Source: Actinomycetes bacterium
GTDB taxonomy: Bacteria; Actinomycetota; CALGFH01
Reading direction: 5' to 3'
NCBI GenBank assembly: GCA_036003705.1
Contig: DASYSE010000102.1
Location: forward strand, 4,965-68,964
DNA length: 64,000 nucleotides
The translations under genes were made by a program, and so were the position numbers. The notes under the pieces were generated by a model. The model saw only the letters and a list, made by a program, of their open reading frames with translations. It was not told where the DNA came from and did no database searches. Positions 3,680 through 64,000 of this stretch are shown here, one piece after another (position 1 is the first letter of the stretch; every line of letters begins with the position of its first letter).

Positions 3680-5449
3680 ATGCCGCAGCGCGGACGGAAG
3701 CGGCCGCCGCCACGCCGTCGGCCGCCGCCGCGGCCGCGGCGGCGGCGCCGGGTCAACGGCCGCCGCCGGCTGCTCGCCCTGCTGATCCTGAGCGTGCTCG
3801 CCTTCACGGCCATCTCCGGCCGGCTGATCGTGCTCCAGGTGCTGGACGCGGGCTCGCTCGACCAGGCGGCGGCCAGGCAGCGGACCACCGTCATCAAGCT
3901 CCCCGCCACCCGCGGACGCATCTTCGACCGCAACCTGGACGACCTGGCCCTCTCCGTCCCGGCAAGGGCCATCTACGCCGAGCCCCGCTTCATCCGTGAC
4001 AAGCGGCGCACCGCCGGCGAGCTGGCCAGGGTCCTTGGGATGTCACGGGCCGACATCGCCAGGCGGCTCGCCTCCGGCAGCTGGGTGTACGTCGCCAGGC
4101 GGGTCCCCAAGGCCAGGGGCGACGTCGTCCAGCGGATGAAGCTGCCGGGCATCGGCGTGATGGTCGACGTCGCCCGCCGCTACCCCTCCGGCAGCGTGGC
4201 CGCCCAGGTGCTGGGCTTCGTCGACGTCGAAGGCCGCGGCCAGGCAGGGATCGAGCAGCAGTACGACGGCCTGCTGCGCGGGCACCCGGGCAGGATCCAG
4301 CTCGAACGGGACCCGAAGGGCCGGGCCATCCCCCAGGGCCACCGCTCCCTCGAGCCTGCCGAGCCCGGCACCGACCTGGTCCTCACCATCGACCAGCACC
4401 TCCAGTACGTCGCCGAGCAGTCCCTGCAACGGGCCGTCCGCCAGCACAAGGCCAAGGCCGGCTCGGTGGTGGTGATGGTCCCGCGCACCGGCGAGGTGCT
4501 GGCCATGGCCAACATGCCGACCTTCGACCCCAACCGGGTCTCCCGCAGCAAGCCCGAGGCCCGCAAGAACCGCGCCGTCGCCGACGTCTTCGAGCCGGGC
4601 TCGACCAACAAGACCATCACCGCCGCGGCGGCGCTCCAGGACGGCGTGGTGACGCCGAGGACGGAGACGATCGTCCCCGACAACGTCCCGCTGTGCCCGG
4701 AGAAGACCTTCCGCGACTCCCACTCCCACGCCCCGGAGCTGATGACCTTCGCCGAGATCGTCGCCAAGTCCTCCAACGTCGGCACCATCATGACGGCCAG
4801 GCACCTCGGGCCCGAGCGGCTGTACAAGGCCGAGCTGGACTTCGGCTACGGGCGCAGGAGCGGCGTCGACCTGCCGGGGGAGTCGCCGGGCATCGTCCGC
4901 CCGGTGCAGAGCTGGTACTGCACCGACCTTGGGACCAACGCCATCGGCCAGGGCGTAGCCGTGACCGTGCTGCAGATGGCAAGCGTCTACGCCACCGTCG
5001 CCAACAACGGGGTGCTGCGGTCGCCGACCCTGCTGCGCGGCACGGTCGACGCCCGCGGCCACCTGGCCAAGGCCGAGCGCAAGCCGGGTCGCCGGGTGCT
5101 GTCGGTCCGCACCGCCCGCACGCTCTCCCGCATCCTGGAGGGCGTGGTCAAGGACGGCGGCACCGGCACGCTGGCCGCGCTGGAGGAGTGGCGGGTGGCC
5201 GGCAAGACCGGCACCGCCCGCAAGCCCGACACCCGGCGCGGCGGCTACCGGCAGGGCGCCTACGTCGGCAGCTTCATCGGCTACGCCCCCGCCGAACGGC
5301 CGGCCGTCGTGGTCGCGGTCGTGATCGACGAGCCGACCAGGGGCTACTACGGCGGGGCGGTGGCGGCGCCGGTGTTCAGGGAGGTCGCCGGCACCGCCCT
5401 GCGCCGCCTCGGCGTGACGCCGACCTTACCGGCCAAGGCGGTGCGCTGA
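3680..5449 (+). CDS. ftsI: Class B penicillin-binding protein, a septal peptidoglycan transpeptidase (FtsI/PBP3-like)
   Basis: N-terminal TM, then a transpeptidase domain with GSTNK (SxxK), SxN and KTGTA motifs. GAGAGGGGGGAAG RBS precedes the ATG at 3680. Confidence 0.9.
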   Translation: MPQRGRKRPPPRRRPPPRPRRRRRVNGRRRLLALLILSVLAFTAISGRLIVLQVLDAGSLDQAAARQRTTVIKLPATRGRIFDRNLDDLALSVPARAIYAEPRFIRDKRRTAGELARVLGMSRADIARRLASGSWVYVARRVPKARGDVVQRMKLPGIGVMVDVARRYPSGSVAAQVLGFVDVEGRGQAGIEQQYDGLLRGHPGRIQLERDPKGRAIPQGHRSLEPAEPGTDLVLTIDQHLQYVAEQSLQRAVRQHKAKAGSVVVMVPRTGEVLAMANMPTFDPNRVSRSKPEARKNRAVADVFEPGSTNKTITAAAALQDGVVTPRTETIVPDNVPLCPEKTFRDSHSHAPELMTFAEIVAKSSNVGTIMTARHLGPERLYKAELDFGYGRRSGVDLPGESPGIVRPVQSWYCTDLGTNAIGQGVAVTVLQMASVYATVANNGVLRSPTLLRGTVDARGHLAKAERKPGRRVLSVRTARTLSRILEGVVKDGGTGTLAALEEWRVAGKTGTARKPDTRRGGYRQGAYVGSFIGYAPAERPAVVVAVVIDEPTRGYYGGAVAAPVFREVAGTALRRLGVTPTLPAKAVR

Positions 5450-53308: not shown

Positions 53309-55357
53309 TCAGCCCAGGTCCAGGCCGACCTGAGCGGCGAGGAAGGTGAGGATGTCGGCGTGGAGCTCGACGGTGCGGCGGACCGAGCGGGCGCCGTGGC
53401 CGGCCTGGCGCTCGCGGCGGAACAGGACCGGACGGCCGGAGGTGGTGGCGGCCTGCAGGGCGGCGCACATCTTGCGGGCGTGCAGCGGGTCGACCCGGGT
53501 GTCGGAGTCGAAGACCGTGAACAGCACCGCCGGGTAGGCGGTCCCCTGGACGACCTTGTGGTACGGCGAGTAGCCGATCAGCCAGCCCAGCTCGGTCGGG
53601 TCGGCGGCCCGCCCGTACTCGTCGTTCCAGGTCTCGCCGAGGCCGAAGCGCTCGTAGCGGACCATGTCGAGCAGGGGGGCGCTGCAGGCCACGGCCGCGA
53701 ACAGCTCCGGCCGCTGGGTGAGGGCGGCCCCGACCAGCAGCCCGCCGTTGGACCCGCCGGCGATGGCCAGCCGCTCCGGTGAGGTCCAGCCGCCGGCGAT
53801 CAGGTGCTCGGCGGCGGCGGCGAAGTCGTCGAACACGTGCTGTTTGTTGGCCCGCATCCCGTCCCGGTGCCAGGCCTCGCCCTCCTCGCTGCCGCCGCGC
53901 AGGTTGGCGATCGCGTACACCCCGCCCTGCTCGACCCAGGCGGCCGTGACCGCGCTCCAGGCCGGTGTCTGCGAGATGTTGAAGCCGCCGTAGCCATACA
54001 GGATCGTCGGCCGGGACCCGTCCGGGGTCGACCCGTCCCGGTGCAGCACGAACAGCCGCACCTCGGTGCCGTCCATGGAGCGGTAGGTCTCCTGCCGGGT
54101 GGTCACCCCGCCCAGCAGGTCGACCTGGCCGGGGGCGTCCATCCACAGCTCGAGGCGAGCGTCGGGGACCCGGTAGCGGTACACGCGGGGCGGGGTGATG
54201 AAGTCGGTGTAGCCGAGGAAGACCTCGTCGCCGCCGTCGGGTCGGGCGGAGACGCCGAGCACCGACCCGGGCCCGGGCAGGTCGACCCCCGCCCGCACAG
54301 CCCCGGTCTGCCGGTCGTGCACCACCGCCCGTCCCACCGCGTGCCGGCTGGACGCCACCACCAGAGCGTCGTCGGTGAGGGCGAACCCTTCGAGCACGTC
54401 GCCGGACTCCGGCACCAGGTCGCGCCACGCCGCCGGCTCCGGCCGGGTCGGGTCGGCGACCACGATCCGGAAGCGGGGCGCATCCAGGTTGGTGTGGAGG
54501 TACAGCCGGCCGTCGACCCCGACCCGGCCGTCGGTCTCCGCGTCGACGCCCTCCTGGACGGTACGCAGGGCCCCGTCGCCGGCCAGGTCGGCGATGTACA
54601 GGTCGTTGCGGGGCGCGGTCCCGGCCGCGGACCCGACCAGCAGCCAGCGGCCGTCGAGGGAGATCCGCAGCGAGTGGTACTCGGTCTTCTCCCGGCCCTC
54701 GCCGAACACCAGCTCGTCGCCGTCCGGGTCGGTCCCCACGCGGTGGCGCCACACCCGCCGGTGGAAGGCCGCCTCTCCCTGGGGCACCGCGTCGGCGGGC
54801 AGCCGGCGGCCGTAGTAGTAGGTGTCGCCGCCGGGCAGCCAGGCCAGCGGGCAGTAGCGGGTACGGTCGATCGGGCCCTCGACGACCTGGCCGCCGGACA
54901 CGTCCATGATCCAGAGCGAGGCCTCCTCGTCGCCGCCCTGGGACAGGAAGTAGGCCAGCCGTTCGCCCTCCAGCGACGGCACCCAGCCGTCGAGGGTGAT
55001 GGTGTCGTCGTCGGCCAGGGCGCTCGGGTCGATCAGGACCCGCTCGGTCCCGTCGGCCTCCCGAACCAGCAGCACCGGGTGCTGCTGGTCGCCGCGGCGG
55101 CGCTGGAGGAACGCCCTGCCACCCCGCAGCACCGGCACCGTGACCAGCCCGGCCCCAAGCAGCCGCTCCAGCCGGTCCCGCACCGCCGCCCGGCCCGGCC
55201 TGCCCTCCATCCACCCGGCCAGCAGCTCGTCCTGGGCCTTGCTCCACGCCTCGGTGTCGTCGGCGTCGGCCTCCTCCAGCCACCGGTAGGGGTCGGCAAC
55301 CCGGAAGCCGTGCAGCTCCTCGACCAGGTCGAGCCGTCGGGCGGGCGGGTACCGCAT
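53309..55357 (-). CDS. Prolyl oligopeptidase (S9A family, prolyl endopeptidase)
   Basis: N-terminal beta-propeller plus a C-terminal alpha/beta-hydrolase domain with GGSNGGLLVGAAL (catalytic Ser), DTRVDPLHARKM and HGARS. ATG at 55357 with GGAGG RBS. Confidence 0.85.
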   Translation of the reverse strand: MRYPPARRLDLVEELHGFRVADPYRWLEEADADDTEAWSKAQDELLAGWMEGRPGRAAVRDRLERLLGAGLVTVPVLRGGRAFLQRRRGDQQHPVLLVREADGTERVLIDPSALADDDTITLDGWVPSLEGERLAYFLSQGGDEEASLWIMDVSGGQVVEGPIDRTRYCPLAWLPGGDTYYYGRRLPADAVPQGEAAFHRRVWRHRVGTDPDGDELVFGEGREKTEYHSLRISLDGRWLLVGSAAGTAPRNDLYIADLAGDGALRTVQEGVDAETDGRVGVDGRLYLHTNLDAPRFRIVVADPTRPEPAAWRDLVPESGDVLEGFALTDDALVVASSRHAVGRAVVHDRQTGAVRAGVDLPGPGSVLGVSARPDGGDEVFLGYTDFITPPRVYRYRVPDARLELWMDAPGQVDLLGGVTTRQETYRSMDGTEVRLFVLHRDGSTPDGSRPTILYGYGGFNISQTPAWSAVTAAWVEQGGVYAIANLRGGSEEGEAWHRDGMRANKQHVFDDFAAAAEHLIAGGWTSPERLAIAGGSNGGLLVGAALTQRPELFAAVACSAPLLDMVRYERFGLGETWNDEYGRAADPTELGWLIGYSPYHKVVQGTAYPAVLFTVFDSDTRVDPLHARKMCAALQAATTSGRPVLFRRERQAGHGARSVRRTVELHADILTFLAAQVGLDLG

Positions 55358-55488: not shown

Positions 55489-55576
55489 TGGTGCCCGAGG
55501 CGGGACTCGAACCCGCACGCCCTTTCGGGCAATCGCTTTTGAGGCGATCGCGGTTGCCGTAATTACGCCACTCGGG
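55489..55576 (-). tRNA. tRNA-Leu (anticodon CAA), type II with a long variable arm, CCA encoded
   Basis: Reverse complement: GCCCGAG-UG-GCG...CGC, anticodon stem AUCGC/GCGAU with loop CU-CAA-AA, a long variable arm, T-arm GGGUUCGAGUCCC, and acceptor CUCGGGC-A-CCA. 88 nt. Confidence 0.85.
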
Positions 55577-55598
55577 CTCGCCAGAGGAGGGTAGCGGA

Positions 55599-56348
55599 AT
55601 GCGGCCAGAGTGGGAAGTGACCCTGGTCCTGAGGCTTGTCGGGGCAGGCCTGAACGACTGCGTGATCGCGCGGCAGACCGGTATTCCTCGGGGTACGGTC
55701 CGCCAGTGGCGGATCGGCCGGGTGCCGAACTTCCGGCGTCAGTCCGGCACATGCGCCATATGCTCAGGCGACCCTCGAGCGCTCCCCCTGCCCGCTTACA
55801 CCTACCTCCTCGGCCTCTATCTCGGTGACGGGTGCCTCACGGCGTGTCCGCGGGACGTGTACAAGCTGCGGATCGCCTGCGCAGAGCGATATCCGGAACT
55901 CGTTCGGTACTGCGAGCTTGCGATGGCCGAGGTCCTTCCCAACAAGACCAACAAGGTCGGCCGGACCAGGAAGACGAACGAGCGCTGCTGGGAGGTCTAC
56001 TCCTTCTCCAAGCACTGGCCGTGTCTGTTCCCGCAGCATGGGCCCGGCAGGAAGCACGAGCGGAAGATCGAGCTGACCATGTGGCAGCAGGAACTGGTCG
56101 ACGCCGACCCGCGCCCGCTGGTGCGGGGGCTGCTGCACTCCGACGGCTGCCGGGTGCTGAACTGGGTGAACGGGACGCCGTACCCCAGATACCACTTCAG
56201 CAACGTGTCGGCGGACATCCGGGGGATCTTCGGGCGGGCCTGCGACCAGCTCGGGATCGAGTGGCGGCCGAACAATCCGTGGAGCCTCTCGGTGGCCAGG
56301 CGGGGAAGCGTCGCCCTGCTCGACGAGTTCGTGGGGCCAAAGCGGTGA
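55599..56348 (+). CDS. Hypothetical protein with an N-terminal HTH and two LAGLIDADG-like motifs (homing-endonuclease-like or DNA-binding). Atypical composition
   Basis: VIARQTGIPRGTVRQW (HTH), YLLGLYLGDGC and LVRGLLHSDGC (LAGLIDADG-like). GAGGAGGG RBS. Noticeably lower GC, with A/T-ending codons (TAT, ATT, GGT, CCT, GTT) that are rare elsewhere in the window. Confidence 0.5.
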   Translation: MRPEWEVTLVLRLVGAGLNDCVIARQTGIPRGTVRQWRIGRVPNFRRQSGTCAICSGDPRALPLPAYTYLLGLYLGDGCLTACPRDVYKLRIACAERYPELVRYCELAMAEVLPNKTNKVGRTRKTNERCWEVYSFSKHWPCLFPQHGPGRKHERKIELTMWQQELVDADPRPLVRGLLHSDGCRVLNWVNGTPYPRYHFSNVSADIRGIFGRACDQLGIEWRPNNPWSLSVARRGSVALLDEFVGPKR

Positions 56349-62477: not shown

Positions 62478-63194
<717 letters not shown>

Positions 63195-63435
63195 CAGCGG
63201 GCGAGGGCGCAACGCCGGATGCCGACCGCTGTCCTGGGAGCTGTCCGGCGAGGACCCGAGAGCCTTTGGCTCCGTTCGCGCACCTTCCCCGAGTGCGCGC
63301 GTTCTCTACTCGGTCCTCGGACCCTCGCGCCGGACGGACCTCGGGGTCCCCGTGGGGACCCCGATTGGGGGCACGCTAACAGCCGGCCGGGTGGAGGGTC
63401 AACCGCGCCAATCCCTTGTGCCGCAACGGTTCCAG

Positions 63436-63464
63436 CATCGTTGCAGGTGGCACCTGCAACGATG
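63436..63464 (+). promoter_or_regulatory. Perfect 29-bp palindrome (14-bp arms), a candidate operator, in the structured intergenic region between livF and the downstream anti-sigma-factor-like gene
   Basis: CATCGTTGCAGGTG-G-CACCTGCAACGATG. Also nearby are CGGGGTCCCC-GT-GGGGACCCCG (63341-63362) and GCGCAC-N9-GTGCGC (63286-63306). Confidence 0.4.
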
Positions 63465-63658
63465 GATCCTGGCCGTCGCGGCGGTTTCCCCCCACCTAGC
63501 TCACCTGGGTGATGTCCGGGCCGCACGGTACCTAGTCCACTCCGCAGGCTTCCCGATCCGGACGAGATCCTCGCGATCCACGGTTTGAGGCTGTCGGCGG
63601 GCGGGGTAGGAGTGGACCGTCCCGACCAGAGCATCTCCCATGATCCACGGCGGACTCG

Positions 63659-64000
63659 GTGAACCTGACCCTCCCACCAGCGTCCAGCTGCCTTCCCGAC
63701 GTCCGGCGCACGGTCGCCCGGGCCCTCTCGGGTGTGGACGACGACGTGGTCGCCGACGTGCTCCTGGCCCTGGACGAGGCGATCAGCAATGCCATCCGCC
63801 ACGGCTCCCGCGCGGGCGGGCGGGTGCTGGTGTCGCTGGAGCGCGACGGGGAGTGGATCGAGATGACGATCCGCGATGGCGGGCCGACCCCCCGCCTGCC
63901 CCGCCTGCCGGCTGCGGCGCCGCCGGCCCTCGACACCGGCGGCCGCGGGCTCTGGCTGATCCTGCAGCTGGTCGACGAGGTACGCCTGCGGCGGGTGGGG
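63659..64000 (+). CDS. Anti-sigma regulatory factor-like protein (HATPase_c, RsbW/SpoIIAB-type Ser kinase), 3'-partial
   Basis: VADVLLALDEAISNAIRHGS...RVLVSLERDGEWIEMTIRDGGPTP...DTGGRGLWLILQLVDEVRL is the typical anti-sigma factor / partner-switching kinase fold. The frame is open to the window end. Confidence 0.6.
   Translation, partial: MNLTLPPASSCLPDVRRTVARALSGVDDDVVADVLLALDEAISNAIRHGSRAGGRVLVSLERDGEWIEMTIRDGGPTPRLPRLPAAAPPALDTGGRGLWLILQLVDEVRLRRVG

Follow-up and report, generated by a model that had tools for sequence, protein, structure and literature searches.

A candidate small RNA gene and a perfect 29-bp palindrome upstream of it, on the polA side of a liv operon in uncultured Actinomycetota

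The locus considered here lies near the right end of a stretch of 64,000 nucleotides of DNA from an Actinomycetes bacterium (contig DASYSE010000102.1), which is called the window in the following. The LivF protein of the window is encoded, as an exact match, on three near-identical JGI metagenome contigs that extend the window, and with the window and these contigs taken together the gene order is livKHMGF, a spacer, a HATPase gene, polA, Nudix and AlaX genes on the other strand, rpsA and coaE. The features of the locus, from left to right, are as follows.

62478..63194, plus strand: livF-type ABC ATPase gene, the last of the liv operon (ORF; Pfam ABC_tran on the called gene)
63240..63366, minus strand: candidate small RNA gene, ~127 nt (covariance model, covariation, conservation profile, fold z-score)
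63373..63381, minus strand: extended -10 element TGT-TAGCGT (TGn in 89/89 sequences; TAGCGT or TAGCTT in 85/89)
63397..63402, minus strand: -35 element TTGACC (89/89 sequences)
63413..63429, no strand: second conserved dyad, imperfect, CCCTTG-N5-CAACGG (conservation profiles)
63436..63464, no strand: perfect 29-bp palindrome CATCGTTGCAGGTG-G-CACCTGCAACGATG (conservation, fixed spacing)
63583..63608, plus strand: SigF/SigB-type promoter-like motif GTTT-N17-GGGTA (GTTT 63583-63586, GGGTA 63604-63608)
63659..64000, plus strand, running off the window: RsbW-like HATPase_c_2 gene (Pfam E=4e-25)

The gene at the right end had been described as RsbW/SpoIIAB-like, of which the HATPase_c_2 assignment stands by its Pfam match, while the more specific RsbA, SpoIIAB and RsbW models match only below threshold. 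The protein has 139 aa in locus L001, where polA comes next. Note that in the metagenome gene calls the internal GTG 63734 is taken as the start, giving 114 aa; since the relatives align from residue 1 of the 139-aa ORF, the longer form with the start at 63659 is favoured. In the annotated neighbourhood no sigma-factor or antagonist gene adjoins the HATPase gene. The motif GTTT-N17-GGGTA is located about 50 bp upstream of its GTG, is present in 69 of the 95 unique loci and is absent from the loci without a HATPase gene. In M. smegmatis the SigF consensus is GTTT-N(14-19)-GGGTA, listed for mycobacterial rsbW genes among others (PMC4694148). The motif suggests that the anti-sigma-like gene, and polA behind it, may be under the control of an alternative sigma factor.

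All three inverted repeats that were claimed for the spacer in the preliminary description are present, as seen in the sequence and by repeat search, and its description as unusually structured is supported. The first one, IR1, consists of GCGCAC (63278-63283) and GTGCGC (63293-63298) around a 9-nt loop and extends to 7 bp (CGCGCAC/GTGCGCG, 63277-63283 and 63293-63299). IR2, which reads CGGGGTCCCC-GT-GGGGACCCCG, has 11-nt arms with 100% complementarity (63341-63351 and 63354-63364), and IR3, the palindrome, has 14-nt arms with 100% complementarity around one central base (63436-63449 and 63451-63464). The coordinates given for the structured region are correct except for the start, 63286, which falls inside the IR1 loop and is about 9 bp too late. 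The distance of ~195 bp from the palindrome to the GTG of the HATPase gene is exact, with 195 bp from the palindrome end to 63659. It is also borne out that arms of 14 bp are unusual by chance: the palindrome is the longest perfect one in the 64-kb window, and in 100 first-order Markov simulations of the window, with a longest arm of 10-13 nt in each, arms of 14 nt were reached in 0/100. Neither the half-site nor the 15-bp core occurs a second time within the 64-kb window, where allowing up to 3 mismatches to the core gives 6 weak matches versus 8.9 expected by chance. The next-longest perfect palindromes in the window are at 55065-55089 (12-bp arms), inside an S9 peptidase coding region, and at 3721-3746 (13-bp arms), which is a low-complexity GCC/GGC run; both arm lengths are within the simulated range.

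A PolA scan of species-representative genomes gave uncultured Actinomycetota/Actinomycetes MAGs with 74-97% PolA identity (L004-L013) and more distant Mycobacteriales MAGs, Streptomyces and others at about 50% identity. In the aligned relatives a block of ~230 bp that spans all three repeats is conserved far above the flanking protein genes, and it is kept in L011, L012 and L013, which have another ABC ATPase gene upstream. With a degenerate pattern derived from the invariant core of the block, at least 120 metagenome contigs were collected, and in every contig with enough flank the block is located upstream of polA, with the HATPase gene between them or not. The HATPase gene is absent from L008, L009, L090, L096, L097, L107, L127 and L140, and also from L146, L151, L169, L180, L182, L184, L186 and L195; in relatives without it, polA starts 150-290 bp past the palindrome. 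Since it is missing in so many relatives, the anti-sigma-like gene can be described as an insert of variable occurrence between the RNA module and polA. Note also that a segment of ~85 bp (about 63470-63575) between the palindrome and the SigF-type motif can be aligned only in the closest relatives, L001 and L004-L007, and is absent from L011-L013 and from many metagenome loci; its presence or absence gives rise to two classes of distance from the palindrome to the SigF-type motif, 35-39 bp and about 117-120 bp. A tRNA search with ARAGORN gave a distant tRNA-Leu only and nothing in the block.

The part of the block between livF and the promoter elements, read on the minus strand, is very probably a small RNA gene, as judged from the comparison of homologous sequences. 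The predicted RNA is composed of the following parts, given from its 5' to its 3' end.

63341..63364, minus strand: 5' hairpin of the RNA, identical with IR2 (helix 1: 10 pairs, 7 changed on both sides, 95.2% paired)
63313..63335, minus strand: 5' strands of the long closing helix P0/P1 (covariation)
63300..63312, minus strand: internal-loop strand CGAGUAGAGAACG, nearly invariant (invariant alignment columns)
63277..63299, minus strand: apical hairpin P2, identical with IR1 (helix 4; A-U to G-C exchange at one pair)
63284-63292, minus strand: P2 loop UCGGGGAAG, of which CGGGGAAG is invariant (invariant alignment columns)
63264..63276, minus strand: internal-loop strand AACGGAGCCAAAG, conserved, with its CCAAAGG part invariant (alignment columns)
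63243..63263, minus strand: 3' strands of P0/P1 (covariation)

The structure was drawn by hand on the window sequence and converted to a covariance model, R1, and the 100 hits of this model were re-aligned to it; this procedure replaced RNAalifold on raw MAFFT alignments, which was unusable because the helices were misaligned. In 100 sources R1 matches once per locus, and each match is oriented divergently to (HATPase)-polA and located upstream of it. Its match in the window, which is a single copy there, covers 63228-63378 on the minus strand with 152.7 bits. A weak match is present in a Corynebacteriales MAG (L018, E=0.023), and the polA loci of Streptomyces and Mycobacterium give none.

In the 100-hit alignment 92.8% of the cells are paired and two-sided changes occur at 27 of the 38 pairs, with none of 500 shuffles being as good and with slid partners giving at most 58% paired. 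In the long closing helix P0/P1 (helices 2 and 3) alone, 19 of the 21 pairs have changes on both sides. An important point to note is that G.U pairs are frequent on the minus strand (UG:42, GU:45 and GU:26 sequences at three pairs); since these would be A.C mismatches on the plus strand, the RNA strand is the minus strand. The folding energy is consistent with this assignment: the RNA folds with -73.3 kcal/mol (z = -3.25), and the fold z-score of the whole spacer is -3.1 for the minus strand versus -1.3 for the plus strand. An RNA on the plus strand was also considered and is ruled out by the A.C mismatches in the long helix and the poorer fold z-score.

Besides the helices, the unpaired segments are constrained. 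The P2 loop CGGGGAAGG and the internal-loop strands CGAGUAGAGAACG and AACGG..CCAAAGG are nearly invariant in all lineages, which suggests a specific protein or RNA partner. At the junction of 63251-63276 with 63313-63316 two mutually exclusive pairings can be drawn, an extension of P1 and a third hairpin GAGCC-AAA-GGCUC, each with partial covariation support; they could be alternative conformers. The 3' end of the RNA is approximate, because the conservation stops at about 63240 with no T-run after it, and the terminator scan found no canonical terminator after the RNA.

By contrast with this assignment, it could be proposed that the conserved block codes for a small protein and that the repeats are incidental, since mechanical ORFs overlap the spacer, one of 97 aa on the plus strand and one of 208 aa on the minus strand. 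However, if this were true, it would be hard to reconcile with the 1- and 2-nt indels among homologues inside the block, with the compensatory substitutions across the helices and with a predicted transcript start that has no start codon, and we regard the proposal as extremely unlikely. Searches with Rfam 15 gave no family for the block in the window at E up to 10, with the 6C model included; in 17 relatives no family reached the gathering score, and 10 divergent homologues had no match at E up to 1. In the literature no description was found of these sequence strings or of polA-associated RNA motifs. The RNA family and the site upstream of it appear to be undescribed.

The promoter assigned to the RNA was analysed in the 89 sequences that carry the palindrome. 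Besides the conservation of the two elements listed above, the -10 hexamer fits TANNNT in 89/89 sequences and the spacer between the elements is 17-18 nt in 88/89 (18 nt in the window), with the spacer sequence being variable and the hexamers invariant. The pattern TTGACN/TANNNT is that of actinobacterial housekeeping promoters, here with an extended -10. From the positions of the elements the RNA is predicted to start near 63366, and this determines the 5' end of the gene as given above. Among the sequences without the palindrome, 11 of 13 have a promoter of the same type. A consensus scan for plus-strand sigma-70 promoters between 63000 and 64000 was empty. While the promoter motif is present, the transcription from it and the exact ends of the RNA are predictions from the sequence. 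Based on the prediction, the housekeeping sigma factor would direct RNA polymerase to a start at about 63366, giving a minus-strand transcript of ~127 nt, which would fold into the 5' GC hairpin, the long closing helix, the large internal loop and the apical hairpin with CGGGGAAGG.

It was proposed in the preliminary description that the GC hairpin, IR2, could be the terminator of the liv operon. The covariation identifies it instead as the 5' hairpin of the minus-strand RNA, and IR1, being the apical hairpin of the same RNA, is likewise no liv terminator. The terminator scan gave 0 sites in 63000-64000, neither IR2, with ATTGGGGG after it, nor the palindrome, with GATCC after it, has a T/U run, and IR2 is as far as 147 bp from the livF stop codon. 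Both repeats are kept in loci with another ABC ATPase gene upstream or with the upstream gene 3 kb away. Since IR1 and IR2 covary on the minus strand and are independent of the upstream gene, they are not liv terminators. Directly after the livF stop codon, at 63195-63231, there is another inverted repeat, CAGCGG...CCGCTG with the inner GGCG-N-CGCC, which has no conservation among the relatives and no T-run. This hairpin is a likelier 3' hairpin of the liv operon than the GC hairpin at 63341-63364. For high-GC genomes in general it follows that a GC hairpin after an operon is not necessarily a terminator.

We then consider the palindrome. Of 100 unique homologous loci, 87 carry its core GCAGGTG-N-CACCTGC, and its centre is 48-50 bp upstream of the -35 box of the small RNA in 89/89 sequences, which corresponds to about -84 from the predicted RNA start. 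Across both arms the information content is high, and right beyond the HATPase-proximal edge it drops to about zero; from this drop the palindrome is taken to be the outer boundary of the conserved module. The distal arm, which faces polA, is better conserved than the proximal arm. Each locus has a single copy of the palindrome, at the orthologous place in all cases, and the 203 loci contain no other. A repetitive element found at many loci, which the preliminary description had named as the outcome that would speak against its proposal, is thus not what is seen: within the 64-kb window and these slices around polA, a REP- or MITE-like dispersed repeat has no further copy to support it. In distant lineages the RNA and its promoter are present and the palindrome is absent, so that the RNA gene does not require it.

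The conserved dyad CCCTTG-N5-CAACGG, with its centre at about -55, is located between the palindrome and the -35 box; it may represent either a further regulator site or an upstream element of the promoter. One clade (L087, L123, L152, L192 and L203) has kept only the distal 14-mer, without variation and with the spacing to the -35 box unchanged, while the proximal arm and the -55 element are replaced. Since the proximal arm is replaced, a hairpin is impossible in this clade. It is also noted that the L087 clade has a new small palindrome, CAGATTTCTG, conserved directly beyond the distal 14-mer, and that in L010 and L120 a different imperfect dyad of similar length, CCTGCT...GGTACC...AGCAGG, is located at the palindrome position. 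The latter could be a diverged operator, a suggestion that comes from a single lineage.

To weigh binding as duplex DNA against folding into a hairpin, the changes in the arms of the palindrome were compared with those in the RNA helices of these genomes, taken as an internal control. Two-sided changes occur at 3 of the 14 palindrome pairs only, versus 27/38 in the RNA helices. Arm positions 2-7 and 11-13 are invariant or changed on one side only, and positions 8-10 are the only ones with any two-sided change. Arm position 1 is conserved although it is unable to pair across a 1-nt loop. The site thus has the architecture of a strong 15-bp inner core, three loose positions and then the conserved ATC/GAT. 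The constraint at the level of the sequence, together with the clade that has kept a single arm, implies that the sequence of the 14-mer itself is under selection, and the palindrome is, with good probability, a sequence-specific recognition site.

The rival that the palindrome acts as a nucleic-acid hairpin, that is, as a terminator or insulator without U-tract between the RNA gene and HATPase-polA, which would stop read-through from the ABC operon on the plus strand or antisense transcription on the minus strand, has several points in its favour: the 14-bp stem is perfect, the palindrome lies between converging and diverging transcription units, and at positions 8-10 there are some two-sided changes (TA/CG and GC/AT types) with complementarity above independence (68 vs 53.5, 47 vs 34.4 and 67 vs 59.1). 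It is noted that such an excess would be given by a hairpin and by shared ancestry alike. However, no T-run follows the palindrome on either strand, and 11 of the 14 pairs lack compensatory change, unlike the true RNA helices. The wobble-type mismatches in the palindrome have no strand bias (41 vs 38), whereas those in the RNA helices are markedly biased. Moreover, position 9 forms a Watson-Crick pair in only 47 of 87 sequences, with 24-40% of the cells unpaired; one clade has a single invariant arm; and the separate hairpin at 63195-63231 is already placed directly after the livF stop codon. The rival is therefore judged unlikely, and recognition by a protein on duplex DNA fits better with the sequence comparison than a structural hairpin.

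If the palindrome is read as a DNA site, it has next to be asked which transcription unit it belongs to. The preliminary description took it as a candidate operator for the regulator of a partner-switching module, and the corresponding rival is that it controls the RsbW-like gene, and polA, to the right. The palindrome does lie within the divergent region upstream of the HATPase gene, and in the compact loci its end is only 35-39 bp before the SigF-type -35 element, which places it about midway between the divergent promoters, where it could serve both. By contrast, its distance to the SigF-type motif varies from 20 to 120 bp in discrete classes, while its spacing to the divergent small-RNA promoter is fixed; it is kept in L008, L009, L090 and L096, where the HATPase gene and its promoter are absent; its conservation ends abruptly at the HATPase-proximal edge; and the HATPase gene already has a conserved alternative-sigma promoter of its own. 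These data do not uphold the earlier assignment, which we now consider improbable, and they illustrate that a palindrome may be located in front of a gene without belonging to it. A further rival is that the distal arm is a rightward extended -10 element (TGCGACGAT: TGn + nACGAT) for HATPase-polA and that the palindrome arose by duplication. This would explain that the polA-facing arm is better conserved and is the sole arm kept in the L087 clade; the hexamer has A at position 2 and T at position 6, and polA needs a promoter in the loci without a HATPase gene. However, the first base of the hexamer is G (71) or A (16) and never T, no -35-like element is present, CACC, which is outside any promoter element, is equally invariant, the consensus promoter scan is empty here, and the mirror-image arm is left unexplained. 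This rival thus has a still lower probability than the operator of the HATPase gene or the hairpin.

Returning to the palindrome as a site on DNA, we give about even chances to its being recognized by a regulator of the small-RNA promoter. In the proposed mechanism, a dimeric regulator, or a dimer of dimers, would bind the palindrome as double-stranded DNA and would control the small-RNA promoter and possibly also the divergent (HATPase)-polA side; the protein binding and the direction of regulation are what we infer from the form and position of the site. It should be noted that a promoter so near to consensus may need no activator and that a position of -84 is unusual for simple repression. 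To our knowledge, the palindrome fits no known actinobacterial operator consensus (LexA, Rex, HspR, CRP-type, DnaA box and others), and within 10 kb of it there is no gene with a Pfam DNA-binding domain above threshold. As a separate observation, a 249-aa protein is encoded at 55599-56348 on the plus strand, next to tRNA-Leu(CAA) at 55489-55577 on the minus strand. It has a sub-threshold N-terminal HTH match (HTH_23, E=3e-4), two LAGLIDADG-like motifs by eye (LLGLYLGDG and LVRGLLHSDG) and no NCBIfam or PDB sequence match, and in many loci it keeps a syntenic place 0.3-14 kb to the left of the small RNA. This protein was considered as the regulator and rejected, since the co-occurrence is explained by gene order and deletions and the protein is present in a palindrome-less locus.

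Taking together the structure of the RNA and its strand, the promoter motif, the fixed spacing and the sequence constraint on the palindrome, we arrive at the reading that the spacer carries a conserved small RNA gene on the opposite strand to its neighbours livF and the HATPase gene, with the palindrome as its upstream regulator site, and this reading we hold to be somewhat more probable than its negation. In a broader form, it would be a new and widespread family of structured small RNAs of uncultured soil Actinomycetota, syntenic with polA and governed via a 29-bp operator, which we put forward tentatively, at a little under even chances. If this is true, a new RNA-centred regulatory module would adjoin the gene of DNA polymerase I. 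Systems of this kind, in which a small RNA gene has a promoter and a regulator site upstream, are familiar. With this reading an odd spacer becomes a defined and testable unit, namely a small RNA family with a predicted start, a structure and a control element. More than 100 soil metagenome contigs, belonging to an actinobacterial lineage about which little is known, carry the RNA, and its nearly invariant unpaired segments and fixed position on the polA side would point to a conserved cellular role that has been overlooked by annotation. In addition, the palindrome provides a direct handle for finding the regulator.

Finally, we compare the locus with known systems. The pairs oxyS/oxyR, gcvB/gcvA and sgrS/sgrR of E. 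coli are stand-alone small RNA genes with an upstream regulator site and a divergent neighbour. The present locus resembles them in having a short structured RNA with its own promoter and a conserved dyad at fixed spacing, and differs from them in that the divergent neighbour is an anti-sigma-type kinase or polA rather than a DNA-binding regulator, and in that it is known from sequence alone. With regard to the site, QacR, a repressor of the TetR family, has a 28-bp operator, IR1, that is bound by a pair of dimers. The palindrome is similar in its length of ~29 bp, with a 15-bp inner core, the outer ATC/GAT and three weakly constrained positions between them; the resemblance is in the site architecture only, there being no linked gene of a TetR-family or other regulator here and the site being at -84 and not over the promoter.

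Among actinobacterial RNAs, the 6C RNA (Rfam RF01066) is described as a highly conserved small RNA with a strong housekeeping-type promoter and conserved hairpin-loop sequences (PMC5014011). The present RNA shares with it the strong conservation, the housekeeping-type promoter and the conserved hairpin loops, and differs in that the 6C loops are C-rich, whereas here the loop CGGGGAAGG is G-rich and a large conserved internal loop is present, as well as in the polA-adjacent position and the lack of an Rfam match at E up to 10. The right-hand side of the locus has its likeness in the mycobacterial SigF/RsbW loci (PMC4694148, PMC7693655): GTTT-N17-GGGTA precedes the RsbW-like gene here, and the rsbW gene MSMEG_1787 is listed with the same motif and the same spacing (PMC4694148). 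The differences are that here it is GTTT-N17-GGGTA, and not the palindrome, that is tied to the HATPase gene, and that no sigma-factor or antagonist gene is its neighbour.
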